Notes: generated from the sequence alone by a model not told the origin. A stretch of 64,000 nt of DNA from an uncultured Pseudomonadales bacterium (GCA_964607285.1 CAZSJW010000001.1:134716-198715); one strand, 5' to 3'; shown: positions 2,049 through 21,193, counted from the first letter of the stretch. Translations and numbers: made by a program.

Positions 2049-2069
2049 TGGACTGTATAATGGGATCCT

Positions 2070-3704: not shown

Positions 3705-3742
3705 TCAGTTAACTGAAATGCTAGATAAATGGGAAGTCTAAT

Positions 3743-4975
3743 TTAGTTTTCAACTTCAGATAACGAAGAAATTCTAGGCATGATTCTACATTTAGGTTTA
3801 AAAACTTCGCTTCTTCTGCCAGTGTAGCTTGCATTACGCTCTTTGGAGAATGCAGAAATATACTTCTGTACCATCTCATCTTCCTCAATGAGGGCAAAAA
3901 TTCTTTGGAAGGGTAAAACTTCATCACCAGCAACTGTATACCTATCTGAGGACAAGTTGTATATTTTTGACAAAGCTATAATAACCTCAACAATCTTTTT
4001 TTCATCACCAGTAATCTCTTCACCTTCAGCAAACATTCCTTTTAATTTGGTTATAAGTCTGTACAACAGCTTGCTACTCTCAAAAGCGAGACGTTTCCTA
4101 GCTAAAGGGTCTTTTTTTATGTCATCTGGCATGCAGTTGCTCAGAATAGAAACGATATACTCATCAAGTTCATATCCTTCTTGATATGCAATATCGAAAC
4201 CCTCAAAAAGAGCAATTATGTATGTAAGTTCGTCTGTAAACTGAAACTCAATACTTCCAGATAAGAGTTTCCATGCCACATTTTTTTCTGCTGTCGATAG
4301 CAAACGACTTACATTTCGTGCCCAATCATCCCGATTATGAAATCGTTTTCTCAGTTCATATAGATCTATAAAATACCTTGTCTTAAACTCTCTGCACAAT
4401 ACATGCAACTTGGTTATTGCTTCAAAGTCATTAGTGTTCTCTTCACCTAACCAATGAACAGAGTTGAAATTCACTTCTTTAAAGTGCTCTAGCATCTTCT
4501 GTGATTTCAAAACTCTCCTGCGATGAAATTTTCTTGTAAACCAGTTTGAGCCAGCTAAATTAAGCTCATGCTTCATTAGGTTTTCAATTAATGTTGTATG
4601 TTGAGATAAAGTTTCAAGTGAAAACTTTTCGGACTTGAAAGGGTGTCGTTGTTCTGTGTGCTCTGACTGATTAGAAGTGTCACGCGATGTATCAATATTT
4701 TCTGTGTCGTCATAATCTGAAGCTGCAGCACTTGTGGCTTTAATTTCTGGAGCAGTTGGAGATAGGTTCATAAATAGCGTTTTACCTAGGGCAAGTGAGT
4801 CAATTAGATTTAAGAGGGATATAGCACTATCAAATGTGCTGGGCCTTTTTCCTAAATATGGGTGTGGAACGGTACCGTCTCCTGTAAGTGTTCTGCGAAC
4901 TGTAGAAATGAACACAGACCAACTTGAGCGTAAATCAACTGTCTCTGCGAAAATATCATCAAACATTGTTTGCAT
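3743..4975 (-). CDS. Hypothetical protein. This is the 410-aa ATG-initiated part of a longer reading frame that continues upstream to about 5475 but is interrupted there.
   Basis: Long intact ORF of mostly alpha-helical character with no motif I can assign. The same frame stays open upstream to an in-frame TGA at 5142-5144. Confidence 0.5.
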   Translation of the reverse strand: MQTMFDDIFAETVDLRSSWSVFISTVRRTLTGDGTVPHPYLGKRPSTFDSAISLLNLIDSLALGKTLFMNLSPTAPEIKATSAAASDYDDTENIDTSRDTSNQSEHTEQRHPFKSEKFSLETLSQHTTLIENLMKHELNLAGSNWFTRKFHRRRVLKSQKMLEHFKEVNFNSVHWLGEENTNDFEAITKLHVLCREFKTRYFIDLYELRKRFHNRDDWARNVSRLLSTAEKNVAWKLLSGSIEFQFTDELTYIIALFEGFDIAYQEGYELDEYIVSILSNCMPDDIKKDPLARKRLAFESSKLLYRLITKLKGMFAEGEEITGDEKKIVEVIIALSKIYNLSSDRYTVAGDEVLPFQRIFALIEEDEMVQKYISAFSKERNASYTGRRSEVFKPKCRIMPRISSLSEVEN

Positions 4976-5475
4976 TATTTTTAGAAACGTGGCTTCATAC
5001 CACTTTGTAGCGTTGATGCCATCTACATCTGTAAACTGGAAAGTATACTCACCAAACTTTACGACAATGTGATGTGGGACTACTCGATTATCTTCGAGGT
5101 GTGAATGGCTGGCTTTTTGTAATAAGTCATATCAGGTAGCTTGAGAGAGCAGTGCTCCGGCAAACTGAATTGCTGAACCAAGATTTATTAGTTCTCCCGT
5201 TTCTTGACCACTAACTATTTCCCGAAAAAACAACTGAAACCCCTGATCTGGGTTTGTTTGATCTTCAATTACAGCAAAGTTTTGTGTACCGACTCCACTA
5301 AAAAAATGTTTTTCATCAGCCTTATCGTTTTCGATTGCTCAAGTTCACCCAATGAATCATCATGCTGTGCTAATCTATCAAAACGTTTTGTTTGATCCGA
5401 CTTTGTTGTAGGTTCTCTAAACGATACATGGCTATTCTGTGCATTGAGTGCTGCCTCATTCAGTGTTGAGTGCAT
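4976..5475 (-). pseudogene. Disrupted 5' portion of the 3743-4975 gene. It carries a frameshift at an A7/T5 homopolymer near 5300-5314 and an in-frame TGA at 5142-5144.
   Basis: The 5475-5269 frame (MHSTLNEAAL...KNIF) reads coherently into a second frame at the poly-A run (..FSGVGTQNFAVIEDQTNPDQGFQLFFREIVSGQETGELINLGSAIQFAGALLSQAT). After a TGA it continues YDLLQKASHSHLEDNRVVPHHIVVKFGEYTFQFTDVDGINATKWYEATFLKIMQTMF, which is the 410-aa ORF. Confidence 0.4.
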
Positions 5476-5589
5476 AGTTGAAAATTGGCATCAATTTTTC
5501 TTAAAAAAAATATTTGTTGGTAAGTAACAATATACAATATTTTCACAAGTCGTGTGTACATTAAAAACTGTAGTACAATACTAGTATCA

Positions 5590-5820
5590 ACCCCACAGCT
5601 TGCCGACACCAAGCAATGTGTAGCGATGCACAGGGTTGTGTGCAAAGTATCTGCCTGAGGTAGACAAAAGCACACCGGGTAAGCCCGTAACCGCTGGAAT
5701 CAAGCCCCGCTTTGGCGGGGGCGAAAGAGGTGGCACCGCCGCTCCAAGTTATACTAAACTGGAAGGCCCTCTTGTGTATCAGTTACTGGTATGCAAGAGG
5801 GTTTTTCTTGTATATCAACA
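5590..5820 (+). promoter_or_regulatory. T-box riboswitch leader for aspS. A likely GAC (Asp) specifier is present, and the element ends in an intrinsic terminator.
   Basis: GAGGTGGCACCGCCG at 5737-5751 matches the T-box consensus AGGGUGGNACCGCG, with UGGC able to pair with NCCA and a G discriminator. Upstream, ...GGTAGACAAAAG... fits an Asp-codon specifier loop. Downstream there is a hairpin, CCCTCTTG (5767-5774) paired with CAAGAGGG (5804-5811), followed by TTTTTCTTG. Confidence 0.6.
5767..5820 (+). terminator. Rho-independent terminator hairpin plus T-tract. This is the terminator arm of the aspS T-box.
   Basis: An 8-bp GC-rich stem, ccctcttg...caagaggg, is followed by tttttcttg immediately upstream of the aspS ATG. 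Confidence 0.6.
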
Positions 5821-5833
5821 CCCGAAAGGCGCT

Positions 5834-7258
5834 ATGCAAACCGCATGCACCACACAAGAAGTACAGAGAACTATGGTTGTCAATTCCTTGGATCATGTTG
5901 GCGAGTCGATCAGGCTTGACGGCTGGGTTGGGAGTAAGCGCGACCATGGCAAGCTCACCTTTATTGATCTGCGCGATCGTACGGGTTCTGTACAATGCGT
6001 TGGGTTTCAGAAAATGGGAGAGCTCACTCCAGAGTCAGTTATCTCAATAGTAGGCAAAGTTAAACAACGCCCAGAGCGGATGGTGAATAAGGAGTCACTC
6101 ACGGGAACAGTCGAAGTAGACGTGGAAAGTTACACGGTACTCAATAAATCACGCGAATTACCAATCCCAATTGATGGTGATGGCTACGAAATCAACGAGG
6201 AGTCACGATTGCGGTATCGCTATCTTGACTTGCGTCGCGAGCGAATGCGCAATATTTTTAACCTGCGTTCCAAGTTTATCCAAGCGCTCAGAGTTGAGTT
6301 GTTTAAGGACGATTTTGTAGAAATCGAGACACCACTTTTGACTAAATCAACCAAAGAAGGTGCTCGGGACTTTATTGTACCTTCCCGCTTCAATCCCGGG
6401 AAGTTTTATGCGCTTCCACAGAGTCCACAACAGTACAAACAACTGCTTATGACCGCTGGTATGGAGCGTTACTTCCAGGTTGCCAAGTGTATTCGAGATG
6501 AGGACTTGCGTGCAGACCGTGGGTTTGAGTTTACCCAGTTGGACGTAGAGATGAGTTTTGTGACACAACAAGATGTGATGCAAACTATCGAGAGGACCGT
6601 AAAATCAGCTGTCAAAGCAGTTGGAGGCAAGTTGCAGCAGGAAGAGTTTCCTGTGTACACGTATGAAGAGGCCATTAAACAGTTCGGCGCCGATAAATTT
6701 GATTTACGGACAGATTCGGAGAAAAAAGAGGGTGTGCTAGCCTTTGCTTGGGTTGTTCGCTTCCCTTTCTTCAAAAAAGTTGACGTCAAAGACGCGGCTG
6801 AGGTAGAAGATGGCAAGAGTGGCTGGACGTTCACGCACAACCCATTCAGCGCACCACTGGAAGAACATCTGCAGTGGCACTTAGCTGGAGAACACCAAGG
6901 CGAAATTTTGACCAGTCAATATGATTTGGTCTGCAATGGCTTTGAGGCGGGCGGTGGCAGCATTAGAGCCCACAACCCCGAAGTGCTGAAAGCAACTTTC
7001 AAAATCATGGGTTACTCCGATGAGCAGATCCAAGAAAATGTCGGGCATATGCTCGAGGCATTTGAGGTTGGCACACCACCACATGGTGGCATTGCGTTGG
7101 GGTTGGATCGTTTGGTGATGCTGTTGGCTGGTGAAGAGTCACTGCGCGAAGTGATTGCATTTCCAATGTCGTCTAGTGGTCGGACTGCAGTGATGGATGC
7201 TCCGAGTGCGATTGGTCCGGCGTTGTTGAAGGAGTTGCGGCTATCTGTGACTAAGTGA
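5834..7258 (+). CDS. aspS: Aspartyl-tRNA synthetase.
   Basis: Motifs FIDLRDRTG, QSPQQYKQLLM, FQVAKCIRDEDLRADRGFEFTQLD and the class II motif 3 [14 protein letters not shown] are all present. The start is set at the ATG at 5834 (MQTACTTQEV...), downstream of the leader; the track's 5636 start lies inside the T-box. Confidence 0.9.
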   Translation: MQTACTTQEVQRTMVVNSLDHVGESIRLDGWVGSKRDHGKLTFIDLRDRTGSVQCVGFQKMGELTPESVISIVGKVKQRPERMVNKESLTGTVEVDVESYTVLNKSRELPIPIDGDGYEINEESRLRYRYLDLRRERMRNIFNLRSKFIQALRVELFKDDFVEIETPLLTKSTKEGARDFIVPSRFNPGKFYALPQSPQQYKQLLMTAGMERYFQVAKCIRDEDLRADRGFEFTQLDVEMSFVTQQDVMQTIERTVKSAVKAVGGKLQQEEFPVYTYEEAIKQFGADKFDLRTDSEKKEGVLAFAWVVRFPFFKKVDVKDAAEVEDGKSGWTFTHNPFSAPLEEHLQWHLAGEHQGEILTSQYDLVCNGFEAGGGSIRAHNPEVLKATFKIMGYSDEQIQENVGHMLEAFEVGTPPHGGIALGLDRLVMLLAGEESLREVIAFPMSSSGRTAVMDAPSAIGPALLKELRLSVTK

Positions 7259-7339
7259 TGAGAGTATTATGACAACTTGACTAGAGATATGATCCTGATC
7301 ATACTCCTGTGAGGACATGCTTATTTTGTATGATAGCTT

Positions 7340-8395
7340 ATGGTCCATGAGAGAAAACTAAAACTCGAGCAACAACCCACGATTCAACTAATGGAGGAGC
7401 ATGAAACCGCATTGAGCTTAGTGTTCTCTTCGCTAAATGGTTTAGTACGGCAACTATCAAATTACTCGCAATTAAGTACGCGACAGTACGACGAGTACGT
7501 TGTCCAAGTTGATTTAGATCAGCAGATAAAAGCATTTGAAGAACATAGAGCTAGCTTTGGCTAGTAGATCACTTACAATTCATGACACGCTGCGATTCGC
7601 ACAAATGCGAAATAATTCGGCACGCCTCGATGCCATGAGAAATGAGTGCAACGACTCTATCGACAAGATGTATGTGCAAACTCAAAGACACATTTTGGAT
7701 GGGTTTAAATATGTTAGCAAGGCGAATGCCGCATCTGTACGGACAATAGAGTCCAAGCTCAGTGTATTGAAAACTGCAACTACAGTGGGGGAAGTTCTTG
7801 CAGTCGATGTATTAATCAGCAGGTCGTAGAATATAAGCATGAATTGCCATTCAGACACGTAGTGAGTAATTGGGTCTCTCCTATTCTAAAAGGAATCCAA
7901 AGCATTTTGATAGAGCATTACTCTTTAACTGCTGTGATATCTAATGCGGTTTTTTCATCCGAGACGAATAGTGAACTAGTAGGTGTGTTGGAATCACAGG
8001 TGATTGTGCCAGATGATGCGAGCTTGCAGCAGGGTATGCCATTTCTTGATACCAAAGAAATGTTTCGTAGACTGGGACCTGCATTTTTGCAGATAAAGGA
8101 GGAGGTTGTTGCAGAAGTTTTAGAGGCACAAGTTATTCTCAAAAGAATGCATTCTGCTGATGCATCTGATGATGTTTTGCCAATGATCTTATTGCTTACA
8201 CAAAAATTTAAAATTCAAGAGACAGCATTTAAAAACTATGTTAACGCTTTACCGCCACATGAGTTGCTTTTTAAGGTGCCTAGAATTGAGCTGTTTGGGA
8301 ACCGAAAAGACGATTCATTTGGTATGCTGTATGAGAAATTTGTTTCCATTCCTAGAAAAGTGAAGCTTGAGCATAAGTATAGTACGAAGCTTTGA
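7340..8395 (+). pseudogene. Decayed paralog (X') of the intact 409-aa gene at 15737-16966. It is split into three ORFs by a frameshift and an internal deletion with premature stop.
   Basis: ORFs 7340-7564, 7536-7829 and 7844-8395 align in order to the N-terminal, middle and C-terminal parts of the 15737 protein. Examples are LSTRQYDEY vs LSTRQYDEF and LPFRHVVSNWV..KFKIQETAFKNYVN..IELFGNRKDD vs LPFRHLMSDWV..KFKIQETAFKNYVN..IELFGNRKDD. The segment ...TELERLGWEFPGAVV... of the intact copy is missing. Confidence 0.65.
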
Positions 8396-8478
8396 AAGTA
8401 TTACTAGTTAAGCCTATTGCGCAACAAAGTTGTATGCAGTACGCTCACATATAACACTTATGCGAATGAGGGGGACAT

Positions 8479-9009
8479 ATGGGGGGCGAAGGACTAACTG
8501 CTAGTTATCAATTTGTTTGGCAACACCTAAAGCAAGGCATCATGAATGAGTTAGTGAAATATAGGATTCCACATACTGATTTATTATATGATCTTGGGCA
8601 TAAAGGAAGATCTTTTGATGATTTTAAGATAGATGCAGATTTCTTTGAGGGACAAGAAGAGATAGCATTAGATGCTTTTTTTGATTCGCAAGCTAGTAAG
8701 ATTGAAGACTATGTCGTCAATCGATCAAAGGAGTGGGAGCAAATTGGGATAGACAAGCTGCTCAAACTTGCCTCAAATGATCCAGATAAGGATTCCAAAA
8801 GCTACGTAGCAATGAGCGAACTACTAATAAATGAGTATCAAAAAAAAGAAATATCTGGTAGTCAAAAAATTTCACTCCCACCTTCAGACATACTAAGCAA
8901 GCTGTTTATGTTTGCAGAGTTAACAGCGCAGCTTAGATTTACCGCATCAGCTCACCGAGAGTATAAATTGAGCGAAAAAATTAATTTTAAGAAGTTTGAT
9001 GAAGTGTAA
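8479..9009 (+). CDS. Hypothetical protein (ORFan). First gene of the AT-rich island.
   Basis: 176-aa ORF preceded by a GAGGGGGA RBS-like sequence. No recognisable motif. Confidence 0.45.
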   Translation: MGGEGLTASYQFVWQHLKQGIMNELVKYRIPHTDLLYDLGHKGRSFDDFKIDADFFEGQEEIALDAFFDSQASKIEDYVVNRSKEWEQIGIDKLLKLASNDPDKDSKSYVAMSELLINEYQKKEISGSQKISLPPSDILSKLFMFAELTAQLRFTASAHREYKLSEKINFKKFDEV

Positions 9010-9044
9010 TGAACTCATAAACATCAAAAGCAAGAAATGAACAT

Positions 9045-10349
9045 ATGGCAAGTGAAAATGCAGGTCATACTAGCATAGGTTTTCAGAAACAGGATTTACC
9101 AGATTTCGATATTCCCAAGGACAATCTATTTGTCGTTCGACAGACCGACGCAGGGTCATATCTTAGTGGTTCTGAATCTGTATTGAATTTATCAAACAAA
9201 GCAGCTGTTGAGAATTTGATGTCTTGTTATTCTTCACTTTTTGATGAGAATGTGCAAGTTGATACGACAGACCTTTCGGTATTTGTAGATTCAGCCAACG
9301 AAAACGGCTGCACAGTTAGATTTATAGAAGCTGGAAATGATAAAGCGATTGTGTATTTTAACAAGAATTATGCTGAGATAATTGCATCAGATCAAAAATT
9401 GTTTAGCAAGATTAGCAGTAGAGACAGACATAGAGTTTCAAATTTGAATAGGGGTATCACTGCAAAAAATTGGAAAGAATTCGGTAATGAGAAGTTGTCA
9501 TTCTCAGAGTCTGAGATAGCATCACTTGCAGAAGAAGTTGTCAAACAATTAGACCGAAATTCTGACCCCGAGTTAAGCGAGGAACGATTGTTGATTCATG
9601 AGCAAAGTCATTTAGTGGATAGAAATAGAAATGTTCGTGGAATTTCTGTTGTTGCAAAAATCAATAGTTTAAATGCCGAGCTTGACCAGATTAAAACAGC
9701 TTTGCTTGATTCAACCTCTGATGAATCAAATTTAAATTATGAAAAACAAGAGGTGATATCGCGAATTCGGGAAATTATGAGACACATGATGCTAATGCTT
9801 TCCATGATGGAAGCAGAATCCATGCTACATGAAACTTTTGGTAGGGTTGTAGAGTCGCCAAACACATATTTCCATGGACAAATGTTGCTGAGAATTGGGG
9901 AAGTTCTGGGCGAGCTGAAATCAAAAGAGGGTCAGGTATCCGATTTTGAGTATGACATTCGCAATCTTTTTTACGGCGAAAACGATGGATTTGCTTCTAG
10001 TCAGCATGCATTAGGAGCCGTAATTCTTATCTTGGGAGAAAAAGTATTTAAGAGGGATGGGAGCGGTGAAATTGATTTCGAATCCTTACTCCCGGAAGAT
10101 ATGAGAGCACATTCAGTAATGGAAAAGGCGAACTACATTGGTGCAGTTGTTCTCAAAAAAATTGCGGAAATAACTATTCACCACGATGAGTATGTTAACG
10201 AAGTAATCAGTAGTGATTTCAAGTCAAAGCTTGTAGAACAAATTGGTTTATTGCGAGCTTCTACTTTAAAAAAGATTGCTGAACTAAAGCATGGTTATGC
10301 TGAAATACTAAGTAGTCAACATTTTTCGAAGGATGACCAACTTATTTAA
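9045..10349 (+). CDS. Hypothetical protein (ORFan), 434 aa, predicted helical.
   Basis: Intact long ORF 36 bp after the preceding gene. No catalytic motif recognised. Confidence 0.45.
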   Translation: MASENAGHTSIGFQKQDLPDFDIPKDNLFVVRQTDAGSYLSGSESVLNLSNKAAVENLMSCYSSLFDENVQVDTTDLSVFVDSANENGCTVRFIEAGNDKAIVYFNKNYAEIIASDQKLFSKISSRDRHRVSNLNRGITAKNWKEFGNEKLSFSESEIASLAEEVVKQLDRNSDPELSEERLLIHEQSHLVDRNRNVRGISVVAKINSLNAELDQIKTALLDSTSDESNLNYEKQEVISRIREIMRHMMLMLSMMEAESMLHETFGRVVESPNTYFHGQMLLRIGEVLGELKSKEGQVSDFEYDIRNLFYGENDGFASSQHALGAVILILGEKVFKRDGSGEIDFESLLPEDMRAHSVMEKANYIGAVVLKKIAEITIHHDEYVNEVISSDFKSKLVEQIGLLRASTLKKIAELKHGYAEILSSQHFSKDDQLI

Positions 10350-10577
10350 AGAGTCTCAAATTCGTGCTATTGATTCGCTGTTAAGTAACAGTCTTGGAAC
10401 TCATAGTGCCACCATGCAACCTGAAGATTTTATGAAACAGTTTATTTCAGCCTTCTCAGAATAATATTGCATTCCCATTTAGCAGTCGCAAAGTTGTGAT
10501 AACATTTTTCGATATGTACAGAAAAAAAGTAATTTCTCTCGTTGCATTGGATTTCGTTTCACTGCTATTATCAAATA

Positions 10578-11207
10578 ATGACTAACGAACTTGTGAATTC
10601 AGCAACGTCGGCTTTAGACACATCAACTAGAACAATTAATACACTAACCAGAACAGTAGGAAGCACACTTGCGGTGCCTATGAATCGGTTTTTAGTTCAG
10701 TTAGATGAGAATGAAGCTAGACAACTCGAGATTGCTACTACGCACGCGCACGCGGTGAGACAAACTGCGCAGCGTTCGCTATTGAATACGGACGGCGGAT
10801 TTTCAGAAGTTACTCAAACTGCACAACAGCAGCGATTTAATTCTACTACTTTTACATTGTCGGATATTCTGACACAGGGTGATGAAAAAACTGAAACAAC
10901 AAAAACGGATAAGATGTGGGGATTCTTCGTAACGCACCGCCGTTCAACTCAATCAGGAAATAAAATTTTTAATCAAATGCAGAATGAGACTCAACGAGCG
11001 GAATCTTCAAGTAACCTTGCAGGTACAACAGGGTCTACTAAAGACCGTTTTGCCAAAATGGGTAGATCTCTAACACCGGAGTCGGTTGCTCAGGTATGTC
11101 GTTCATATGAAATTGCATTAGATCAAGGGGCTTCGTTTAACCCATTCGAGACAAAGAAATTGATGTCAGAAAGACTTAGTTTTTTGCAGTCGGTTCGCAG
11201 TAGCTAG
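10578..11207 (+). CDS. Hypothetical Thr/Ser/Gln-rich protein (ORFan).
   Basis: ORF in the same orientation as its neighbours. The start is taken at the ATG at 10578 (MTNELVNS...). The composition is low-complexity. Confidence 0.4.
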   Translation: MTNELVNSATSALDTSTRTINTLTRTVGSTLAVPMNRFLVQLDENEARQLEIATTHAHAVRQTAQRSLLNTDGGFSEVTQTAQQQRFNSTTFTLSDILTQGDEKTETTKTDKMWGFFVTHRRSTQSGNKIFNQMQNETQRAESSSNLAGTTGSTKDRFAKMGRSLTPESVAQVCRSYEIALDQGASFNPFETKKLMSERLSFLQSVRSS

Positions 11208-11220
11208 TAGTGCTTATGAG

Positions 11221-13056
11221 ATGTCGACAATTGGTCTTCAAAGGATGCAAGAGGGATTACCAGAAGAAACGCTGAATAGAGCTGAAGTAGATAGGCAGCA
11301 GCTGGTTTTACTCTACATGGAGATTGGTCTCCAAGAATTCATACAGGGCTTTGATTTGTTACTCGAAAGTGCTTCAGTACATGATTCAGCACAGCAATTG
11401 ATGACTTTAGTCAACTTGGCTTATGAATTTAATCAGGAGTTTGGTAAAAAATTGTTGACACGCTGGGCTGAAAAGTTGCCAGATCAACTTCCAGAGGTTA
11501 ACTGCGCATTTTTTATTGCTTACTCTCAGATGTTTAAGAATGGAGTTTCGAGCAATTGGTTGCCAGAGACACAGAGAGAATTTCTTGATGGAATGAGTTT
11601 CATACTTCCCACATTGCTGAATCATGATGCTCCAGCAATTGTTATAAGTACACTAAAAAAATTTCTCCTCGATATTTTCATGAGTGATGGAAATAATGCA
11701 GCCAAAGTGAGACTTTATGAGGTATATGTTGAACAACATGCAGAAGAATTGGGAGCTGTAATTAAATTAATATTTGATACACAAGTTAAGTTGCCCAGTG
11801 AAGTTGTACATAAATTGTTACCGACAGTTTCAACAGAACTATCAGCAAAGAACTCATCTACAGAAAAGGCAGCATTACTGATTGGAAACACAAAAGATGC
11901 AGTAGATATTGTGAATTATTTGAGGAATCTAGTAACAGATTCTCAAGAGTTGGCTTCAGTGGAATATCAATTGATTGTGGCTCTTGTGAAGCGATTTGGT
12001 GAGAATGAGTGGAAAATTCCAAATACTCGATTTTATCGAGCTGGATTCTCAACCGATGAAGCACCAGTGCTAATGAAACTTGTCAAAGAAGGTTTTTCGC
12101 CGATTCTTTTAACTGTAAAGGGATATACTAATATTGCAAACGAGTTGAGCTGGATTAAAGAAAGTTTCATATTACAAAATCAATCTGTACAATTGACTCT
12201 TGATCCTCGGTTGCCCCAATCGTATGAATCATTTCGCGAGACCGGATATGCAAGACAAGTGTTTCCTGATTTACATTGGCTAGAAGAGTTTATAAAATGC
12301 TATGAATTAATTGAACAAGATCCAGTTCAAGTAGAGAATAATCTTTCTGAGGCTATTCAAATATTGACTGAGTGGTGGGGTTCAAGGAGTGCTGCACTCA
12401 TGTTTGATATATATTTGAGAAGTGTGAATGCTGATGCACTGAGCAGCTTTAAGCGTATTGTAGCAGGATTGCGGCAGATACATGGTCAAGAGTTGCAGCG
12501 TGGACTAATTGAAGCAATCGATAAAAGATTTTTAGCAGATCAGTTGCAAGAACTATCACATTTTGAAGCTCTTTTAGTTCAATCAGTTTCAGAACTTAAG
12601 AGCATCAAACTTGGATTTCTTGAACGAAGAATGCGCAAACAGATTGATGCAATTGTCGTACAAGCTGAAGGTATTATTTCTGAGATAAATGATTTAAAAA
12701 ATAACATCGATAATACAACAGTATCGCTTGAAGGAGCATATGCTCTGTGGAAAAATGTTGTAAAGATGAGCAGAGAATTTAAACAGATATTTGTTGATCG
12801 TTCTTCTAGGCTGCATAGCATGCGAGAAGTATTAACAGCTAGTAGACTCACGACAGAAAACCGAGAACGTCTTTATACTGCATATCAGAGAATTTCTCAG
12901 CTTGCTAGTTACGAAGCAGATAGAACTGAAGTTGGTGCAATAACTGGATATAAAATAACCAAGTTACCCGCACCATTGACTTTTTTTCAAAAAATGACCG
13001 AAGGTAGAATCCATATTCTACAACACCTCACAGCAAGTACGAATCCTACGATCTAA
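11221..13056 (+). CDS. Hypothetical large protein (ORFan), 611 aa.
   Basis: Intact ORF starting 14 bp after the previous gene. No Walker, HEPN or nuclease motif recognised. Confidence 0.45.
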   Translation: MSTIGLQRMQEGLPEETLNRAEVDRQQLVLLYMEIGLQEFIQGFDLLLESASVHDSAQQLMTLVNLAYEFNQEFGKKLLTRWAEKLPDQLPEVNCAFFIAYSQMFKNGVSSNWLPETQREFLDGMSFILPTLLNHDAPAIVISTLKKFLLDIFMSDGNNAAKVRLYEVYVEQHAEELGAVIKLIFDTQVKLPSEVVHKLLPTVSTELSAKNSSTEKAALLIGNTKDAVDIVNYLRNLVTDSQELASVEYQLIVALVKRFGENEWKIPNTRFYRAGFSTDEAPVLMKLVKEGFSPILLTVKGYTNIANELSWIKESFILQNQSVQLTLDPRLPQSYESFRETGYARQVFPDLHWLEEFIKCYELIEQDPVQVENNLSEAIQILTEWWGSRSAALMFDIYLRSVNADALSSFKRIVAGLRQIHGQELQRGLIEAIDKRFLADQLQELSHFEALLVQSVSELKSIKLGFLERRMRKQIDAIVVQAEGIISEINDLKNNIDNTTVSLEGAYALWKNVVKMSREFKQIFVDRSSRLHSMREVLTASRLTTENRERLYTAYQRISQLASYEADRTEVGAITGYKITKLPAPLTFFQKMTEGRIHILQHLTASTNPTI

Positions 13057-13095
13057 GAAAATGTGTATTAGCTAAAATCCTAATAGGATATTACA

Positions 13096-13587
13096 ATGAT
13101 TTCACAGGAACCTCTGTCTAATCCTCTCAAAGAATCCGATATAACTAATAGAGCTGAATTGCAGTCCATATTGAGAATTTTACCTCCAGATTTATCAGAA
13201 CGCATTCAGATAACTTTTCCGCAACCCGAACTATTTGTTTCACAAATTATTATTGGAATGAGGAAAATTATTCGTTTCTATGAATCGAAGGAAGACGTTA
13301 ATAATGCTCGTTTATCAGCTGCATTGCTAGACTCTTTGAAAAAGGAGTTCAGGACTCTCTCACCTCGAGAGTTTAGAGACAACTTATTTTTAAGGAGCAC
13401 TATAGCAGTTGCAACAATTTCCTTCATCTTCGCTTTGATTTCTGGTGATGTAAGTGATTTAGAAACAAAAGTTCTGGGAGTTGAATTACTTGTGCTTGCT
13501 ATTTCGTATTTTAATTTTATTTATAATAAGCCACGCTCAGTAAGTGCTGTCACACTTTTCAGAAATGCACTGCAAAATAATGAATAG
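13096..13587 (+). CDS. Hypothetical protein with a C-terminal transmembrane segment (ORFan). Last gene of the island.
   Basis: 163-aa ORF with a hydrophobic stretch, IAVATISFIFALISG...LLVLAISYFNFIY. Confidence 0.4.
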   Translation: MISQEPLSNPLKESDITNRAELQSILRILPPDLSERIQITFPQPELFVSQIIIGMRKIIRFYESKEDVNNARLSAALLDSLKKEFRTLSPREFRDNLFLRSTIAVATISFIFALISGDVSDLETKVLGVELLVLAISYFNFIYNKPRSVSAVTLFRNALQNNE

Positions 13588-13721
13588 GATGTAAGCGAAA
13601 GAAATCTAATATTTGCTGTTTATGCAATCTTATAATTAGTGGCAGCAACTGCAATAATTCCTTGGAATCGAATTTGCAATTGTTGAAAACTCTGGCGAAA
13701 TGGATCCTCTAAGAGATTGCT

Positions 13722-13755
13722 TAAGAATGTCTGATTATTAAGAATGTCTGATTAT
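13722..13755 (+). repeat. Perfect tandem duplication of a 17-bp unit.
   Basis: TAAGAATGTCTGATTAT occurs twice back to back (13722-13738 and 13739-13755) in the non-coding stretch between the island and the dacA remnant. Confidence 0.8.
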
Positions 13756-13968
13756 AAGGAAAATTATAGTGCTTTGTATGAAAATGACAAAACAGGATTG
13801 ATAATCATGGTCAGTTCCCGACAGATATTTGAAACCCTGAGCACTGGTCAAGCAAAAAAATAGGTGAAGAATTATCCAAAACTTCCATACTTGGTATTCC
13901 AGAGTGGGTGCTGCCACAACAGGCCTAGCCTATAGGCAACATTAAATTCAACTAGTACAATTTCAGGT

Positions 13969-14700
13969 GTGCAACTTCGCTTCGATCAGTATGTAAGTCT
14001 TACCCTACTTTGTGGCGCCCTACTGCTTTCTGGCCTAAGCCAGCCAATAAGTGCATCGCAAGAACCCGGTTCAGTATTTCTGTTGGAAAAACCAGAAATC
14101 ACGATCCCAATCACCGACTCAACCGTGGCAGAACCAGAAATAACCGCCACCTCTGCAATCGTCATAGACGAACAATCTGCAGTAACGCTCTTTGATAAAA
14201 ACTCTCAACAGCAATTTTCCCCAGCCTCCACCACCAAACTAATGACCGCCTTAGTCGCCAGGTCAATTTTTGAGCTAGACATGGCGTTATCAGTTCCCAG
14301 CATTGTCAGCGCCCTTGACGGCACCCGCATGGGGTTAGTCCCAGGTGAGCGACTATCTGTGCAAGCACTGCTCAAAGGAGCGTTAATGCAGTCTGGAAAC
14401 GATGCAGCTATAACGCTAGCTAGTGCACACCCCGCAGGTATAGACGGTTTTATCTTAGATATGAACTTATTAGCAAAGATCTATCATCTAGATCACACCT
14501 CATTCAAAAACCCAATAGGCTACGATGCACCAGAGAATTTTTCGACAGCAAGAGATCTTGCATTGTTAGCCAGATAAACAATGCAAGATCCAGTACTGCG
14601 CAAGATCGTTGGCACAACCGAAGAAGCGGGTGAAGTTCTCATAACTCAATTTATGCTAGGAAATCAATCTATTTTGGTTTTAGTCATGGGAAGTAAAGAT
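13969..14700 (+). pseudogene. Truncated and decayed copy of D-alanyl-D-alanine carboxypeptidase (dacA'). The N-terminal two-thirds are present, followed by a deleted C-terminal remnant fused to an aspS fragment.
   Basis: The 202-aa ORF is about 70% identical to the 17036 DacA over the SxxK motif (PASTTKLMTALVAR) and the SGN motif (QSGND). After the stop, the frame-shifted remnant [32 protein letters not shown] matches the DacA C-terminus with internal deletions. Confidence 0.65.
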
Positions 14701-14897
14701 TTGAAGTTGGCACTCCCCCACACGGTGGTATTGCTCTAGGTCTAGATCGATTGGTGATGCTTTTGGCTGGTGAAACCTCGCTGCGAGAAGTTATTGCGTT
14801 TCCAATGTCCTCTAGTGGTCGGACTGCGGTGATGGACGCGCCGAGTCTGGTTAGTTCGGCGTTGCTGAAGGAGTTGCATTTATCGATCAAGCAGTAA
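14701..14897 (+). pseudogene. Orphan 3'-terminal fragment of aspS (last ~65 codons plus stop), duplicated from 7062-7258.
   Basis: It translates to ..[62 protein letters not shown], against the aspS end ..[62 protein letters not shown]. Nucleotide identity is about 85%. Confidence 0.75.
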
Positions 14898-14968
14898 CTT
14901 ATTCAGTCTATAGCAATTATTAAACGTGATCCAGTAATCTACCTCTAATCTAGCGTTGCAAAATTGGG

Positions 14969-15656
14969 GTGAAACAAATAATGCCCAAGGAGACAAATCG
15001 TTACTATGAAAAATACTTGTGGACAGTACAGATAGTAATTGTTATGTTTTGGGTTTATACTATTCTTAATGCAGTAAATTTTTGGAAAAAGGACAAAATG
15101 AACAATCCAGATACTGATTTAAGTCCTGACATAGAAACAATATTGCACCAGTATCAAGAAATGAGCCAACTTGGTGAGAGAAAAAAAATTTGTGGATTTC
15201 TTCAGTCAAGCTGAAGAAGGGCTCAAAGAGAAACTGACTGCACATTTAGAAGAATCAGACCCAAGAGAAACTGCGGTGATTACATTCATGTCCACATTAG
15301 TTCAGTTCGTGAAAAAAACAGGACTAACAGTCAGTTTCCCAGGGACTGGTAGCCGCTTTTACGAAAATAATCACCAACCAGAGGATGATGATTTATGGGA
15401 AGAGGCAGTGAAACCTTTTCTCAATAAACAAACCTTTTTAGACATGGAATATATTGTAGTAAATAGAAAAAGTGCTGCTAAAATGAAGGATCAAGTATCT
15501 GGGAATAGGAGCTTTACATTTTTGTCAGCCGATGTCGACTTGTTTATACTGTTCCCAACAGGTAGAATTTCTGGTGTATTGAGCACAGAACAAACAAGTA
15601 AGCTCTATGTCTTGCTCACGTCTGCAGGTATTGTGGGAGCAAGTGCTTGGTACTAG
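14969..15656 (+). CDS. Hypothetical protein with an N-terminal TM helix. It is probably a single gene interrupted by a frameshift in an A8 run at about 15181-15188.
   Basis: ORF 14969-15214 (..EMSQLGERKKICGF) and ORF 15171-15656 (MVREKKFVDFF..) overlap by 44 bp across GAGAGAAAAAAAATTTG. Joining them there gives one continuous ~228-aa protein. Confidence 0.35.
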
Positions 15657-15736
15657 AGCAGCAAGTTTCTGTGTTGAAATAATCAACAATTCTTTCCTCA
15701 GCTTGACTTGAGAACTCTGCCAAATCATACTCCACT

Positions 15737-16966
15737 GTGGACACACATTTTGTGTGCGTGATTATGGAGTCCGAACAACAGCTAAAACAAGAACAAAAAT
15801 CTGCATATAGCCTCTTGGAGCAGTATGCGAGTGAGATGCGTTCTATGCTTTTCTCGCTGAAGCATGTAGCACGGCAACTTGGCATTTTTTCAAAATTAAG
15901 CACCCGACAATACGATGAGTTCACCAGGGATGTGCAACCAACTCAGCAACTAGAAAAAGTACGAGATCTTCAGCAGATTCTTGCAGGTAAAACCTTGACA
16001 ATTAATGAGGAACTGCGTTTTTCACAATTGAGGATCGAGTTGTTTCGACTTGAATCAGCACTGCAGGATTGTAGAGATATCATCAACCAAAAGTATTTAC
16101 AGTCTCAGACTGCTATTGTGCAGGGGTTTAGGTATGTGAGAAAGGCTGATGCGGTTTCTGTACGTGCTACTGAGTCTCAGCTTGTCACTTTGCGTTCTGC
16201 AGCAACTGTCGGCGCAGTTTTTGAAGTGATGACAGAGTTGGAGCGGCTTGGTTGGGAGTTTCCTGGTGCTGTTGTGTCTGCAAGAACAGTAGATGGAGAT
16301 GGGTTGCTACGGCTCAGTTCAGAAAAACCAGCGTCAGTCCAAACTGAATGCTCACAGTTTGTTACAGGATGCATAAATCAAACTGTGACTGGATATCAGC
16401 ATGAACTGCCATTTAGACATCTAATGAGCGATTGGGTTCGTACTTATTTTAAAAAAATTCAAAGCGTTCTGATCGAGCATTATGCAGCAGTAAACTCAAT
16501 ATCAGGCACTGTTTTTGCGTCTGAGACTAACAGAGAGTTACTGACAGTGTTGGAATCACAGATAGTAGTGCCAGATGATGCAGGGTTGCAGAAGGGTACA
16601 CCCTTTCTTGAAACCAAAGAAATGTTGCAGAGATTGGGACCTACATTTTCGAAGCTGAGAGAGGAGATCATAGCAGAAGTTCTTGAAGCGCAGCAAATAC
16701 TTTCAAGAATACAATACGCAGACTCAACGGAGAATATATTGCAGCATATCTTGCTGCTTACACCAAAATTTAAAATTCAAGAAACTGCTTTTAAAAACTA
16801 TGTTAATGGTTTGCAGCCACATGAGTTACTGTTAAAGGTTTCCCGAATAGAGTTGTTTGGAAACCGTAAAGACGATGCGTTTGGTGTGCTCTATGAAAAA
16901 TATGTTTCTGTCCCTAAAAAAGAGAGAAGCTTAAACGAACATGCCAAGTTACTAAAATCTTACTGA
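15737..16966 (+). CDS. Hypothetical protein X, the intact member of a duplicated family. Function unknown.
   Basis: 409-aa intact ORF. It is the paralog of the fragmented 7340-8395 locus. No known domain recognised. Confidence 0.5.
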   Translation: MDTHFVCVIMESEQQLKQEQKSAYSLLEQYASEMRSMLFSLKHVARQLGIFSKLSTRQYDEFTRDVQPTQQLEKVRDLQQILAGKTLTINEELRFSQLRIELFRLESALQDCRDIINQKYLQSQTAIVQGFRYVRKADAVSVRATESQLVTLRSAATVGAVFEVMTELERLGWEFPGAVVSARTVDGDGLLRLSSEKPASVQTECSQFVTGCINQTVTGYQHELPFRHLMSDWVRTYFKKIQSVLIEHYAAVNSISGTVFASETNRELLTVLESQIVVPDDAGLQKGTPFLETKEMLQRLGPTFSKLREEIIAEVLEAQQILSRIQYADSTENILQHILLLTPKFKIQETAFKNYVNGLQPHELLLKVSRIELFGNRKDDAFGVLYEKYVSVPKKERSLNEHAKLLKSY

Positions 16967-17035
16967 TTGTGGAACATAAACCAGCACAGATGTAGTATTA
17001 TGAGAACAAACGTACATATCAACTAGATAAACAGT

Positions 17036-17962
17036 GTGTCACTTCGGCCAGATCAATATATTTCCATTGCTGCCATTAGCGTTGTCTTAGTGGTAGTGGG
17101 AGTTATCAGGCCAGTTGGAGCAGCTGATACATCTAGGACGTTTCTGTTGATCGAGAAATCTGAATTTGTGTTGCCTGTTATTGACCCAACAGTTGTGCAG
17201 CCACAAGTAAGTGCTGCTGCAGCGATTGTAATCGATGAGCAATCTGCCGTTACTTTGTACGAAAAAAATGCTACTGTCCAGTTTCCACCAGCTTCGACAA
17301 CCAAGTTACTAACAGCACTTGTAGCTCGATCAATGTATGAATTGGACGCTGTACTCACTGTCCCAACACTGGTAACCGCACTGGATGGAACAAGAATGGG
17401 ACTTGTTCCAGGAGAAAAACTTCCCGTTTCAGCACTGCTGCAGGGAGCACTCATTCAGTCTGGTAATGATGCAGCCTTAACACTGGCAGCAGCACATCCA
17501 GCTGGTGTTGGAGGGTTTGTATCAGAAATGAACTCGAAGGCAGATTTTCTACATCTCACTCAATCAAATTTTACTAACCCAATTGGGTATGATGCACCTG
17601 GACAGTTGGTTACGCCAAGAGATCTGGCATTGTTAGCCAGAGAAGTAATGAAAGACCCTGTGCTCAGAAAAATAGTTGGCACTGCTAAGGTTCAGGTATC
17701 AGATACTAAAGGGGCGATTACCCATGACCTTGTGACTACACACAAACTTTTAGGTGTAGATCCCACTGTGATTGGTATAAAAACAGGTACAACTGAAGAA
17801 GCTGGAGAGGTATTGATCACTCAGTTCAAGAGAGATGCTCAATCCATATTGATTGTGATTATGGGTAGTGATGACCGCTACAAAGATACACAAGAGCTAA
17901 TTGAGTATGTAAGAACTGCGGTACATTGGGAAACAGTATTTAGCGTACCAGAAGCCCGATAG
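17036..17962 (+). CDS. dacA: D-alanyl-D-alanine carboxypeptidase (serine-type, PBP5/DacA family) with an N-terminal signal or TM segment.
   Basis: GTG start followed by a TM helix. Motifs SxxK (PASTTKLLTALVAR), SGN (QSGNDAA) and KTG (GIKTGTT) are present. Confidence 0.8.
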   Translation: MSLRPDQYISIAAISVVLVVVGVIRPVGAADTSRTFLLIEKSEFVLPVIDPTVVQPQVSAAAAIVIDEQSAVTLYEKNATVQFPPASTTKLLTALVARSMYELDAVLTVPTLVTALDGTRMGLVPGEKLPVSALLQGALIQSGNDAALTLAAAHPAGVGGFVSEMNSKADFLHLTQSNFTNPIGYDAPGQLVTPRDLALLAREVMKDPVLRKIVGTAKVQVSDTKGAITHDLVTTHKLLGVDPTVIGIKTGTTEEAGEVLITQFKRDAQSILIVIMGSDDRYKDTQELIEYVRTAVHWETVFSVPEAR

Positions 17963-17995
17963 TTTGGGTACTTGTGTGATACCATAAAGGGACAT

Positions 17996-19291
17996 ATGCA
18001 GATAACAGTTATAGGTACGGGGTTTGTTGGTGTAGTTTCAGCAGCTGTCTATGCTTCATTTGGTAATACTGTATACGGAATAGATATTGATGCTCAGAAA
18101 ATTGAGTCACTTCGTGCTAGCACTGTGCCATTTTATGAACCAGGCCTGCAAGAGTTATTACTTGAACAGCAAAAATCGGGTAATTTATCATTTACCACAA
18201 AGTATGAAGAGGCAGTACCTGCTTCTGAAGTCATTATCATTGCGGTTGGTACCCCATCTGCTGCTGATGGTGGCGCAGACTTGAAGTTTGTGTTGTCCGC
18301 AGCGCAATCAGCTGCAGAGCACTTACAAGAGAACGCAATTGTAGTGATTAAGTCGACTGTTCCCCCTGGCACACTACAAATAGTCGCTGCAGAACTTGCA
18401 AAGCACACACAAAAGAAATTCTTCATTGCTTCTTTGCCTGAGTTTTTACGTGAAGGGACAGCAGTTCACGATACGCTTCATCCAGATAGAATAGTGATCG
18501 GTACAGATGCACCTGAAGTTGCCGAAAAGCTATCAGAACTTCACAAGCAGCTAGCTGCACCAATTGTCATAACTAAACCCCAGTCTGCACAAATGGCAAA
18601 GTACGCTGCAAATGCTTACTTGGCATTACGTATCACCTTTATTAACCAGATAGCTGATTTATGCGAAAAAAATGGCGCAGATGTTGAGGAAGTTGTATCC
18701 GCTATTGGGTATGATAAAAGGATTGGCTCACATTACTGGTATCCAGGTCTTGGGTACGGTGGGTCATGTTTCCCTAAAGATGTGAAAGAACTCGCGCACT
18801 ACTCCAAACAGGTTGGTGAAAATGATAACTTGTTCATTAAGGTCAATGAACTGAACACAGATAGAATTCCCAGGTTGATGGACAGTTTTGGCAAAGAAGT
18901 TGGTGGATGGGAAGGAAAACAAGTTGCAGTCCTTGGTCTATCATTCAAGCCAAATACTGATGATATGAGGGAAGCACCTAGTCTTTCAGTTGTTCCAGCG
19001 CTACTGGCTGCGGGTGCAGTTGTTCGTGCCACAGATCCTAAAGCAATCGATGTAGCACGAGCTCAACTTCCTCCGTCGGATAGGCTCACTTTCTTGCAAA
19101 CTGTTTCAGAAGCGTGTATGGGAGCTGATGTGATCTTGCTTTTGATCGAGTGGCCCGAATATGTGACGCATGAGTATGGTAAGTATCGTTCAAACACAAC
19201 ACAGTGGTTTATTGACACAAGAAATCAGCTAGATCCAAAGGTTGTCACTGAGTGGGGTTACACCCACCGTGGAATAGGCAGAGGTGCATGA
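17996..19291 (+). CDS. ugd: UDP-glucose 6-dehydrogenase (nucleotide-sugar dehydrogenase family).
   Basis: MQITVIGTGFVGVVSA (Rossmann fold), the catalytic GGSCFPKD and a C-terminal UDP-binding domain. Confidence 0.85.
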   Translation: MQITVIGTGFVGVVSAAVYASFGNTVYGIDIDAQKIESLRASTVPFYEPGLQELLLEQQKSGNLSFTTKYEEAVPASEVIIIAVGTPSAADGGADLKFVLSAAQSAAEHLQENAIVVIKSTVPPGTLQIVAAELAKHTQKKFFIASLPEFLREGTAVHDTLHPDRIVIGTDAPEVAEKLSELHKQLAAPIVITKPQSAQMAKYAANAYLALRITFINQIADLCEKNGADVEEVVSAIGYDKRIGSHYWYPGLGYGGSCFPKDVKELAHYSKQVGENDNLFIKVNELNTDRIPRLMDSFGKEVGGWEGKQVAVLGLSFKPNTDDMREAPSLSVVPALLAAGAVVRATDPKAIDVARAQLPPSDRLTFLQTVSEACMGADVILLLIEWPEYVTHEYGKYRSNTTQWFIDTRNQLDPKVVTEWGYTHRGIGRGA

Positions 19292-20219
19292 GGTCATACT
19301 AATAACGGGTGGCACTGGGTTTGTGGGCACACACCTGATGCAGTTACTCGCCAAAAGGCAGAATGAGATTCACGTGACATCACTAAGTGGTGAGTCAGTT
19401 TCTGTCGGAGAAGTACAAGTACATCAAATTGATCTTTGTGACTCAGAAGCTACTAGAAGTTTGTTTGCCAAAATACAGCCAACTCAGGTGTATCACTTGG
19501 CATCTCTGGCTGCAGTTGGTTCGAGTTTTGGGCAGGCTGAAACCGTTCTTTCACAAAACACGAAGCTGCAGCTGTCTGTACTGGATGCGGTAGTAGCAGA
19601 GGCGAAGGAAGCACGGTTCCTTCACGTCAGTTCTGCAGAAGTATATGGTACAAGCTTGCCTGATGAATTGCCTATAACAGAACAGCATCCGTTTAGACCA
19701 TCAAACCCCTATGGTGTGTCTAAAGCCACTCAGGATTTATTGACAGGGTGCTATGCACAGATGTATGGTGTACAAGCGATTCGAGTTCGGCCGTTTAATC
19801 ATATCGGTGCAGGACAAAGTGCTGCATTTGCAGTACCAGCATTTGCTAAACAGTTAGTTGCTATTGAACGTGGAGCAGAACCAGTTTTGCAGGTGGGCAA
19901 TTTGCATGCTATTCGTGACTTTACTGATGTGGAAGATATTACTCGTGCATATGAGTTGCTCATGCAGGTAGGCGTACCTGGGGAGGTATACAATCTTGGT
20001 TCAGGCACAGGATATAGTATGCAAGATGTTTTAAACCAAATGATTGAAGTACTAGACATACCATTAGATATGCAAGTTGATCCAAAAAGACTGAGACCAC
20101 TTGATATTCCAGTCATGGTAGCAAATAATGCTAGGATGAGGGAACTGGGTTGGGAGCCAACTATTTCACTTTCAGAGTCACTTAGGCGTATTATTGAGTA
20201 TTGGAGATCACGACCATGA
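19284..20219 (+). CDS. NAD-dependent nucleotide-sugar epimerase/reductase, best guess GDP-4-keto-6-deoxy-D-mannose reductase (Rmd) or GDP-fucose synthase-like.
   Basis: [14 protein letters not shown] Rossmann fold and a [11 protein letters not shown] (YxxxK) motif. It lies immediately upstream of gmd, with a 4-bp overlap. Confidence 0.55.
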
Positions 20220-21193
20220 AAAAAGCATTTATAACAGGCATTACTGGACAAGATGGTTCATACCTGGCTGAGTTGTTGCTCGAGAAAGGCTATCAGGTGT
20301 TTGGTTTGACTCGTAGAACCAGCACTCAGAACTACGCCCGCATCGAGCACATTATGCGTGACCCAAACCTTGAGCTCATTTCAGGTGATCTGATTGATCA
20401 GCATTCAATTACTTTTGCTATACAGGACATACAGCCTGACGAGGTCTATAACCTTGCAGCACAGTCGTTCGTGCAAGCCAGCTGGGATCAACCAGTACTG
20501 ACTGGCGAGTTCACAGCTCTTGGTGTAGTTCGTGTCCTCGAGGCACTTAGACTTGCTTGCCCTGATGCAAAGTTTTATCAGGCTAGTTCAAGTGAGATGT
20601 TTGGCAAAGTTCAGGAAGTGCCACAAACCGAGCAGACCCCATTTTACCCAAGGTCTCCTTACGGTGTTGCTAAAGTGTATGGACACTGGATAACAGTGAA
20701 TTATAGGGAGTCTTTTGATATGTTTGCAGTTTCAGGCATACTGTTTAATCATGAATCTCCTAGACGAGGACTTGAGTTTGTGACTAGAAAAATTGCGAAT
20801 GCTGTTGCTCGGGTTAAGCTCAAAAAACAATCACACGTAGAACTGGGGAACCTCGATGCAAAACGAGACTGGGGGTATGCAAAAGATTATGTTGAAGCTA
20901 TGTGGATGATGTTGCAGCAAGATACTCCAGAGGACTTTGTAATTGCTACTGGGGAGACACACTCAGTAAAGGAATTTTTGCAACTGGCATGTGCTGCTGC
21001 TGGAATTCCTGATTGGGAGGCAATCTATAAGCATAATCCAAAGTATGATCGTCCTGCAGAAGTAGATTTACTGATAGGTGATCCCAGCAAAGCTAAGAAG
21101 ATGTTAGGTTGGCAGCCAACGGTGTCTTTCCAAGATCTAGTTACTCTAATGGTACAAGCCGAGCTTGAGTTAGAAAGCCAATCAGTCTCATGA
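20216..21193 (+). CDS. gmd: GDP-mannose 4,6-dehydratase.
   Basis: [31 protein letters not shown] plus the [10 protein letters not shown] and NHESPRRG motifs, all characteristic of Gmd. Confidence 0.9.

Follow-up and report, generated by a model that had tools for sequence, protein, structure and literature searches.

The 64,000-nucleotide stretch GCA_964607285.1 CAZSJW010000001.1:134716-198715 (hereafter the window, meaning the whole stretch analysed) carries a segment of unusual composition between aspS, the aspartyl-tRNA synthetase (AspRS) gene, and the D-Ala-D-Ala carboxypeptidase gene dacA. This segment of 5.5 kb, at about positions 8396 to 13947, is probably a horizontally acquired island of flexible genome, lodged between aspS and dacA in a Pacebacteria-like bacterium of the candidate phyla radiation (CPR). 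It contains four genes, apparently brought together as a collection of accessory genes without being inherited as one machine. Its absence from relatives and its outlying genome signature support horizontal acquisition at a variable hot spot. The original prediction, made from the sequence alone, had described an acquired accessory insert, a description that agrees with the absence of these genes from the corresponding loci of six lineages and with the outlying dinucleotide (delta*) and tetranucleotide values.

Genes and boundaries of the island

Five open reading frames (ORFs) follow one another on the + strand at 8479-9009 (176 amino acids, aa), 9045-10349 (434 aa), 10542/10578-11207 (221/209 aa), 11221-13056 (611 aa) and 13096-13587 (163 aa), with the common orientation, sizes and positions that had been predicted. 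The public (NCBI) annotation contains the identical five proteins and places the start of ORF3 at 10578. All five are true coding sequences, since their lengths are not attainable by chance at 37% GC (about e^-43 for 611 open codons, with about 0.068 stops per codon) and since GC content varies with codon position (GC1 > GC2 ~ GC3) as it does elsewhere in the window.

The window holds two copies of a region that ends in dacA. In copy 1, a decayed gene, X', is separated from a decayed dacA' by the island; in copy 2, an intact gene, X, precedes the full-length dacA. Copy 1 contains the segment at about 8396-13947, where copy 2 has about 52 nucleotides (nt) instead; we consider this segment as extra to copy 1 because homology between the copies restarts at 13948. 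The gap between X and dacA in copy 2 measures 69 nt, against the 70 bp first reported. The features of the island are as follows.

8396-13947, + strand: inserted segment (island proper), delimited by comparison of copy 1 with copy 2 and by composition
8479-9009, + strand: ORF1, 176 aa, acidic, soluble; no homologue found; left out of the exhaustive search
9045-10349, + strand: ORF2, 434 aa, candidate zinc metallopeptidase, with helices predicted after a beta region near the N-terminus; its only remote relatives are P0126/P0128 (370 aa)
9597-9611, + strand: codons of the ORF2 HExxH motif (H185-E186-Q-S-H189), invariant in P0126/P0128
10578-11207, + strand: ORF3, 209 aa, T/S/Q-rich, N-terminal part of a split gene, ORF3/4; aligns with residues 28-216 of P0124
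11180-11185, + strand: T6 homopolymer at which the frame changes from ORF3 to ORF4; removal of one T gives a continuous 825-aa ORF
11221-13056, + strand: ORF4, 611 aa, predicted all-alpha, C-terminal part of the split gene; aligns with residues 241-764 of P0124
13096-13587, + strand: ORF5, 163 aa, soluble N-terminal half and C-terminal hydrophobic hairpin; remote relative P0125
13721-13754, no strand: perfect 17-bp x2 tandem repeat in the spacer between ORF5 and dacA', with no copy at the other boundary

Two features read earlier from the sequence were recovered, namely the T/S/Q-rich composition of the middle ORF (T 15%, S 11% and Q 8% in ORF3) and the transmembrane segment of the last one, which corresponds to a hydrophobic segment at residues 96-121 of ORF5; a second segment can be recognized by eye at about residues 125-148. 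Scans for promoters and terminators gave results at or below the shuffle expectation.

Composition of the island

The GC content of the island is 37.3%, compared to 41.8 +/- 1.1% in 44 other segments of 5.1 kb (minimum 39.8%), which places it 4 standard deviations (SD) low; the 39 reference genes have 42.2 +/- 2.3%. The value in the high 30s originally given for the island thus stands, whereas the comparator chosen at that time, aspS, is the most GC-rich gene in the window (48.4%) and exaggerates the difference. The deviation of the genome signature is larger. The dinucleotide delta* (x1000) reaches 117.6 in the island and 30.3 +/- 8.2 in the same 44 segments (maximum 54.7), i.e., more than 10 SD from the host, and the tetranucleotide r with the rest of the window is 0.816, compared to 0.945 +/- 0.009. 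All four sub-parts of the island (ORF1-2, ORF3, ORF4, and ORF5 with its spacer) are shifted, with delta* values of 110-151 versus 34-59 in control genes. The proposed calculation of GC and codon-usage deviation therefore gave a mixed outcome: GC and genome signature deviate, synonymous codon usage does not.

The aspS–dacA spacer in related lineages

The window comes from a CPR (Patescibacteria) bacterium of the Pacebacteria type, because the best AspRS matches (70-95% identity) include entries named by their source as Patescibacteria or 'Candidatus Pacebacteria'; the two closest proteins, P0001 and P0002, are followed by others at about 75%. This AspRS is of the bacterial type but, in common with all its closest relatives (about 465-482 aa), has no GAD insertion domain. 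The two conserved flanks of the variable region are:

5834-7258, + strand: aspS, left flank, with M67 of the ORF beginning at 5636 as likely start; 95% identical to P0001 and 88% to P0002
17036-17962, + strand: full-length dacA, right flank; equidistant, with the downstream sugar genes, from the related loci L003 and L004

We compared this region with the aspS loci of six related lineages (L003, L004/5, L006, L007/8, L009/10 and L011/12). In four of the six, dacA directly follows aspS, after 25 nt in L003, 40 nt in L007/8 and 293 nt in L011/12, or with an overlap in L009/10. A single 116-aa ORF lies between the two genes in L006, and L004/5 has two there, one of 314 aa in the opposite orientation and one of 200 aa. 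In the window, the distance from aspS to the full dacA is 9.8 kb. None of the five island proteins, nor the proteins encoded by X and by a 410-aa ORF upstream of aspS (o410), has a tblastn match in the aspS loci of the six lineages. L003 is the relative with the 95% identical AspRS, and yet its spacer has only 25 nt. Within the variable region, only o161 (15171-15656) has a counterpart in a relative: its product shares 40% identity with the 200-aa protein that L004/5 (L004 12552-13154) encodes just upstream of dacA. Because aspS and dacA are adjacent or nearly so in the six lineages, and the island proteins are unmatched there, the spacer is best read as a variable recombination hot spot, with all of 7259-17035 being lineage-specific.

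A core locus conserved in the lineage would be expected to combine host-like GC and codon usage with orthologues at the same syntenic position in relatives. Neither this combination nor such orthologues were found, in line with horizontal acquisition. One could still suppose that the island is an ancestral, lineage-specific locus at the aspS–dacA boundary that evolved rapidly and was lost independently in the sampled relatives, with no transfer involved. The host-like synonymous codon usage and the presence of the X family in both alleles would fit such a history, and orphan genes of CPR bacteria are known to evolve fast. However, it requires losses in six lineages, including L003 with its 95% identical AspRS and 25-nt spacer, and it has to accommodate both a dinucleotide signature more than 10 SD from the host and a copy 2 that lacks the island. 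We regard an ancestral origin as highly improbable.

A second small flexible spot lies nearby. The spacer between recJ and aspS contains o410 (3743-4975, - strand), a 410-aa orphan ORF with 37.1% GC and no family match. This spacer is also variable in relatives, where it contains from zero to four called genes, mostly unrelated orphans, and its composition is island-like.

ORF3 and ORF4 as parts of a single gene

Whereas five genes had been predicted, there are four, ORF3 and ORF4 being one gene of about 825 codons split by a 1-nt indel in the T6 homopolymer. Three observations lead to this conclusion. The N-terminal 216 residues of the homologous protein P0124 align with ORF3 (28% identity, E = 2e-10). 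The homology in the ORF4 frame passes its ATG and extends 8 codons upstream of it (AVASSAYE versus AVAMSAYE). Finally, deletion of one T from T6 (11180-11185) produces an 825-codon ORF that matches P0124 in a single high-scoring segment pair (residues 23-684 versus 28-709, 662 residues, E = 9e-48). The extra T could be either a true mutation or an assembly error; T6 as a site of +1 slippage is less likely. The ORF4 product is predicted to be all-alpha, and its single-sequence AlphaFold2 model is unusable (predicted local distance difference test score, pLDDT, of 42.1).

This frameshift raises the question of whether the island is a decaying remnant, i.e., non-functional recombination cargo on its way to deletion like the neighbouring pseudogenes X', dacA' and aspS' (a 3' fragment of aspS). 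In favour of this view, three decayed gene copies surround the island, no relative has retained it, and each of its proteins is the lone member of its cluster. However, stretches of 434, 611, 176 and 163 open codons at 37% GC are far beyond what neutral decay would leave, and coding periodicity is normal. Moreover, the sole frameshift lies in a homopolymer, so that it could be an assembly error or a very recent event, and ORF4 keeps an in-frame ATG. We therefore consider decay of the island unlikely, while giving it some weight.

Rare homologues in unrelated contexts

An exhaustive HMMER search with ORF2, ORF4 and ORF5 against 1.84 billion representatives returned, besides self matches, only three proteins:

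P0124, 846 aa: matches ORF4 residues 1-523, E = 1e-26
P0125, 167 aa: matches ORF5 with 31% identity, E = 3.5e-13
P0126, 370 aa: matches ORF2 residues 164-405, E = 2.7e-6

The clusters that these proteins represent stem from Logan assemblies and have one or two members each, and the proteins come from three different genomes. P0124 is encoded on a 3.5-kb contig, beside small orphan genes. In the genome with P0125, five genes, thrS among them, separate rplA from rplJ, and the one immediately upstream of rplJ encodes P0125. The gene for P0126, or its close relative P0128, lies in an operon-like arrangement between a femAB-like and a degT-like gene (femAB-P0128-degT), a few genes downstream of dnaA-dnaN. 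None of these three neighbourhoods contains a further island gene. Since the homologues occur singly in three unrelated genomic contexts, the island is not a conserved block or multi-gene system, and ORF2, ORF3/4 and ORF5 are best described as near-orphans. The notion of a cassette acting as a functional unit loses its footing here, and the earlier label of ORFans needs qualification: ORF2, ORF3/4 and ORF5 each have one remote family, and only ORF1 has no homologue found.

For the five ORFs, X, o161 and o410, no hit rose above noise in scans with Pfam, NCBIfam, PHROGs and PADLOC; matches to DUF7019, THOC7 and similar families (E of about 0.01-0.07) were below the cut-offs and were rejected. 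Sequence searches of the PDB with single sequences and small profiles gave nothing, and no record turned up when proteins of the window were looked up by exact identity. A match between AcrIIA2 and P0124 (E = 0.029) was discarded as noise because it falls on the low-complexity N-terminus.

Two observations concern the genomes that encode these homologues. In the genome with the ORF5 homologue (L014 4262-11262), the usually contiguous rplK-rplA-rplJ-rplL genes are split by five genes, corresponding to three orphans, thrS and P0125. The genes for P0126 and P0128 (L015 1715-2827 and L016 10001-11113) differ by one codon within codons 1-311, non-synonymously, and by 19 in the last 59, a pattern suggesting a mosaic produced by recombination within the gene. 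A ratio of non-synonymous to synonymous substitution rates (dN/dS) for this pair is uninformative, because the concentration of 19 of the 20 differing codons in the last 59 reflects this mosaic and not selection.

ORF2, a candidate zinc metallopeptidase

None of the island proteins had been thought to carry an assignable motif. This holds for the family databases scanned above, which are empty for all five ORFs, and fails for ORF2. ORF2 and P0126/P0128 share 22% identity overall and an invariant IHExxH motif (IHEQSH in ORF2, IHEKAH in P0126/P0128), together with the invariant residues E212, E256, H262 and H321. E212, a possible third metal ligand, follows H189 at a distance of 23 residues and falls in the helix predicted next (with a model pLDDT there of about 50-60 or lower). 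The low-confidence model of ORF2 presents a three-stranded sheet (90-115), the HExxH helix (175-197) and the E212 helix (202-222), in this order. A sheet followed by an HExxH helix and then by a glutamate-bearing helix is the order expected of a gluzincin. Because the IHExxH motif and a downstream glutamate are invariant in the relatives, ORF2 is a candidate zinc metallopeptidase, which should be taken as a lead and not as a demonstration. No signal peptide was noted when the N-terminus of ORF2 was read by eye, without a predictor.

The suggested comparison of AlphaFold models by Foldseek did not help. The ORF2 AlphaFold2 model built from a 3-sequence alignment has a pLDDT of 38.6 and is unusable, and Foldseek against the PDB with this model retrieved only noise from BAR and coiled-coil-like long helices.

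Mobility and defence functions

We looked for signs that the island is, or was, part of a mobile element. Pfam, NCBIfam and PHROGs scans detected no integrase, transposase, recombinase or phage family. No tRNA gene adjoins the island, the only one being 17 kb away, and no direct or inverted repeats flank its boundaries. The 17-bp tandem repeat at 13721-13754, formerly put forward as a candidate insertion scar, has no partner at the left boundary and was rejected as such. Relatives of the island proteins are missing from the viral contigs of IMG/VR, the INPHARED phages and the PLSDB plasmids, and scans of JGI metagenome and viral contigs with the ORF4 and ORF2 families gave nothing.

The foreign composition, the co-oriented and tightly spaced orphans, and their insertion between conserved genes are all features that cargo of a degraded integrative element or of a CPR prophage would present. 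Nevertheless, the negative results above, to which can be added the ordinary chromosomal contexts of the homologues, already weakly refute this possibility, and we consider it very unlikely. A novel anti-phage defence or addiction (toxin-antitoxin-like) module, in which a protease would act with a large effector and a membrane protein, seems scarcely credible. Such a layout is plausible by inference, and defence islands are typically AT-rich, variable and filled with orphans. However, PADLOC returned no match, no NTPase, nuclease, TIR, SIR2 or similar domain was found, and each of the parts is found alone in other genomes. PADLOC, PHROGs, Pfam and NCBIfam thus lend no support to a role in defence, addiction or a mobile element, all mentioned in the original prediction.

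The duplicated flanks as a mosaic of two alleles

The regions on either side of the island contain the following genes and gene remnants.

7322-8395, + strand: X', decayed copy of X; the match covers 7322-8359 in three pieces, in frames 2, 3 and 2, corresponding to X residues 4-73, 75-164 and 203-395
13969-14700, + strand: dacA', truncated and decayed D-Ala-D-Ala carboxypeptidase gene; open over 202 codons (13969-14577), with nucleotide homology up to about nt 840 of 924
14701-14884, + strand: aspS', remnant of the last 180-200 nt or so of an aspS; homology over 174-186 nt
15171-15656, + strand: o161, 161-aa orphan, present in copy 2 only
15737-16966, + strand: X, intact 409-aa gene, absent from all relatives examined

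Residues 165-202 of X are unmatched in X'. A promoter-like element, TTGACT-17 nt-CATACT, is present before both X' (7277-7305) and X (15703-15731). Comparison of X with genome contigs gave only spurious matches to Bradyrhizobium at 27%.

The island had been placed inside a duplicated segment. Homology between the copies is real, as seen for X', dacA' and the aspS tail, whose positions 7060-7238 match 14699-14877 at 83% nucleotide identity. However, the copies are not each other's closest relatives: dacA' shares 59% amino acid and 67% nucleotide identity with the window's own dacA, compared to 76% and 83%, respectively, with the dacA of L003. Because dacA' is closer to L003 dacA than to its neighbour, the two copies are not sisters. 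In the same way, DUF3592, recJ, aspS and dacA' are 90, 83, 95 and 76% identical to their L003 counterparts and 69, 64, 88 and 63% to those of L004, which places them clearly nearest L003. In contrast, the full dacA and the sugar genes ugd, epi, gmd, gt2 and pmt2 (64, 74, 73, 91, 84 and 68% identity to L003; 66, 74, 70, 89, 84 and 65% to L004) are equidistant from both. The apparent duplication thus consists of two diverged alleles standing side by side, and not of a simple intragenomic tandem duplication. The junction between dacA' and aspS' at 14700/14701 (window positions 14690-14710) is exact and illegitimate, with a 2-nt AT microhomology.

A phylogenetic discontinuity is also visible at the aspS–dacA boundary on the scale of the whole neighbourhood, the genes in 1-7258 being sister to L003 and those in 17036-26400 equidistant from L003 and L004. 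This suggests that the surface-glycan cluster has been exchanged between lineages. Near the right end of the window, two paralogue pairs with 25-28% identity were observed, one adjacent (59466-61103/61100-62815) and the other one gene apart (54773-55678/56583-57413).

Origin and possible role of the island

The analysis shows directly that the island is absent from relatives and is an outlier in composition, that one gene is split, that the ORF2 motif is conserved and that the dacA'-aspS' junction exists; we infer the direction and mechanism of transfer, as well as all of the biochemistry. DNA from related Pacebacteria would have entered by recombination anchored in the conserved flanks, and at least one event would have been imprecise, leaving a dacA truncated at about nt 840 and joined illegitimately to a 3' fragment of aspS. 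The simplest scenario would be a single event, homology-anchored at one end and illegitimate at the other, that set a foreign allele (aspS'-o161-X-dacA, continued by the sugar genes) beside the native one (aspS-X'-island-dacA'). The redundant X', truncated dacA' and aspS' would then have started to decay. Since the island lies in the L003-like allele and is nonetheless absent from L003, either the lineage of the window would have gained it on its own branch, or L003 would have lost it.

The four genes would encode a small acidic protein (ORF1), a candidate zinc metallopeptidase (ORF2), a protein of about 825 aa with a disordered polar N-terminus and a large all-helical body (ORF3/4) and a small protein with a C-terminal membrane hairpin (ORF5), the families concerned being very rare and confined so far to a handful of uncultured bacteria. 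With low confidence, we propose that these are accessory cytoplasmic or membrane-associated proteins linked to the envelope and that ORF2 acts as a metal-dependent peptidase. Three weak hints point to the envelope: dacA and glycosylation genes lie close to the island, the ORF2 homologue is encoded between femAB-like and degT-like genes, and ORF5 has its membrane hairpin.

Several points weigh against this reading. The choice among synonymous codons stays inside the range of the host, and codon positions 1 and 2 account for much of the lower GC, so that an unusual amino-acid content, and not foreign origin, could explain part of the compositional shift. No donor was found, and the lack of mobility genes, of an adjoining tRNA target and of flanking repeats, noted above, also counts here. 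The exhaustive search covered ORF2, ORF4 and ORF5 only. Word-index protein searches, for which the island proteins were joined end to end or a two-row alignment was concatenated, gave no match; these are weak negatives, as the same search missed the window's own proteins and P0124-P0126, all of them representatives in the collection, which makes negatives from long concatenated queries unreliable. The metallopeptidase assignment depends on a short motif common to only two independent sequences, no zincin family match to ORF2 was found in Pfam, NCBIfam or PDB sequences, and the AlphaFold2 and Foldseek results were unusable. The envelope link derives from gene neighbourhood in only two loci. Finally, in view of the frameshift in ORF3/4 and of the pseudogenes nearby, the island may itself be decaying and no longer functional.

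If horizontal acquisition is correct, the island would be a clean and well-bounded case of strain-specific gene gain in the ultra-small genomes of CPR bacteria, and it would indicate that recombination via conserved neighbours can leave a datable footprint, made of two alleles, an illegitimate junction and decaying duplicates. The three extremely rare families, one of them possibly a new metallopeptidase, would be candidates for a part in CPR-host interaction or envelope remodelling. A bolder proposal, which we hold to be doubtful, is that ORF2, ORF3/4 and ORF5 represent three undescribed families of ultra-small uncultured bacteria, that ORF2 founds a zincin clade acting with cell-wall precursor enzymes, and that the island is a transferable set for remodelling the envelope or host interface that differs between close CPR strains. 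Orphan-rich islands are expected in CPR genomes, and the present one opens no long-standing question.

Comparison with known systems

Genomic islands are common in Patescibacteria, and most individual gene transfers occur within the phylum (PMC12455944). The present island resembles the islands and hot spots described there in its presence in one lineage, its atypical composition, its unknown genes and its conserved flanks able to anchor recombination. It differs from them in having no integrase, tRNA target or direct repeats, in contents that are nearly without relatives and in its location within a two-allele mosaic.

Two of its genes can also be compared with known types. ORF2 may be compared with the gluzincin-type zincins (thermolysin-like and minimal zincins): in ORF2 and its relatives, hhHExxH falls within a predicted helix that a beta region precedes, and an invariant glutamate stands 23 residues beyond the second histidine, in the following predicted helix. 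ORF2 differs in having no zincin match in Pfam, NCBIfam or the PDB and no confident model, and is thus a candidate member only. ORF3 and ORF4 together equal one fused 846-aa protein elsewhere (P0124), as in Rosetta-stone or split-gene pairs. Their split differs from such pairs in that it is a 1-nt homopolymer frame change with residual in-frame homology, and it is for this reason a frameshift (or an assembly error) and not an evolved two-gene arrangement.

Homology-facilitated illegitimate recombination during natural transformation has been described in Acinetobacter and Streptococcus pneumoniae. In the window, such a process is deduced only from its footprint. This footprint has the likeness of the known process: one end would be anchored by homology, the other is joined at a 2-nt microhomology, and truncated duplicates of the flanks (dacA'|aspS') are left at the site.

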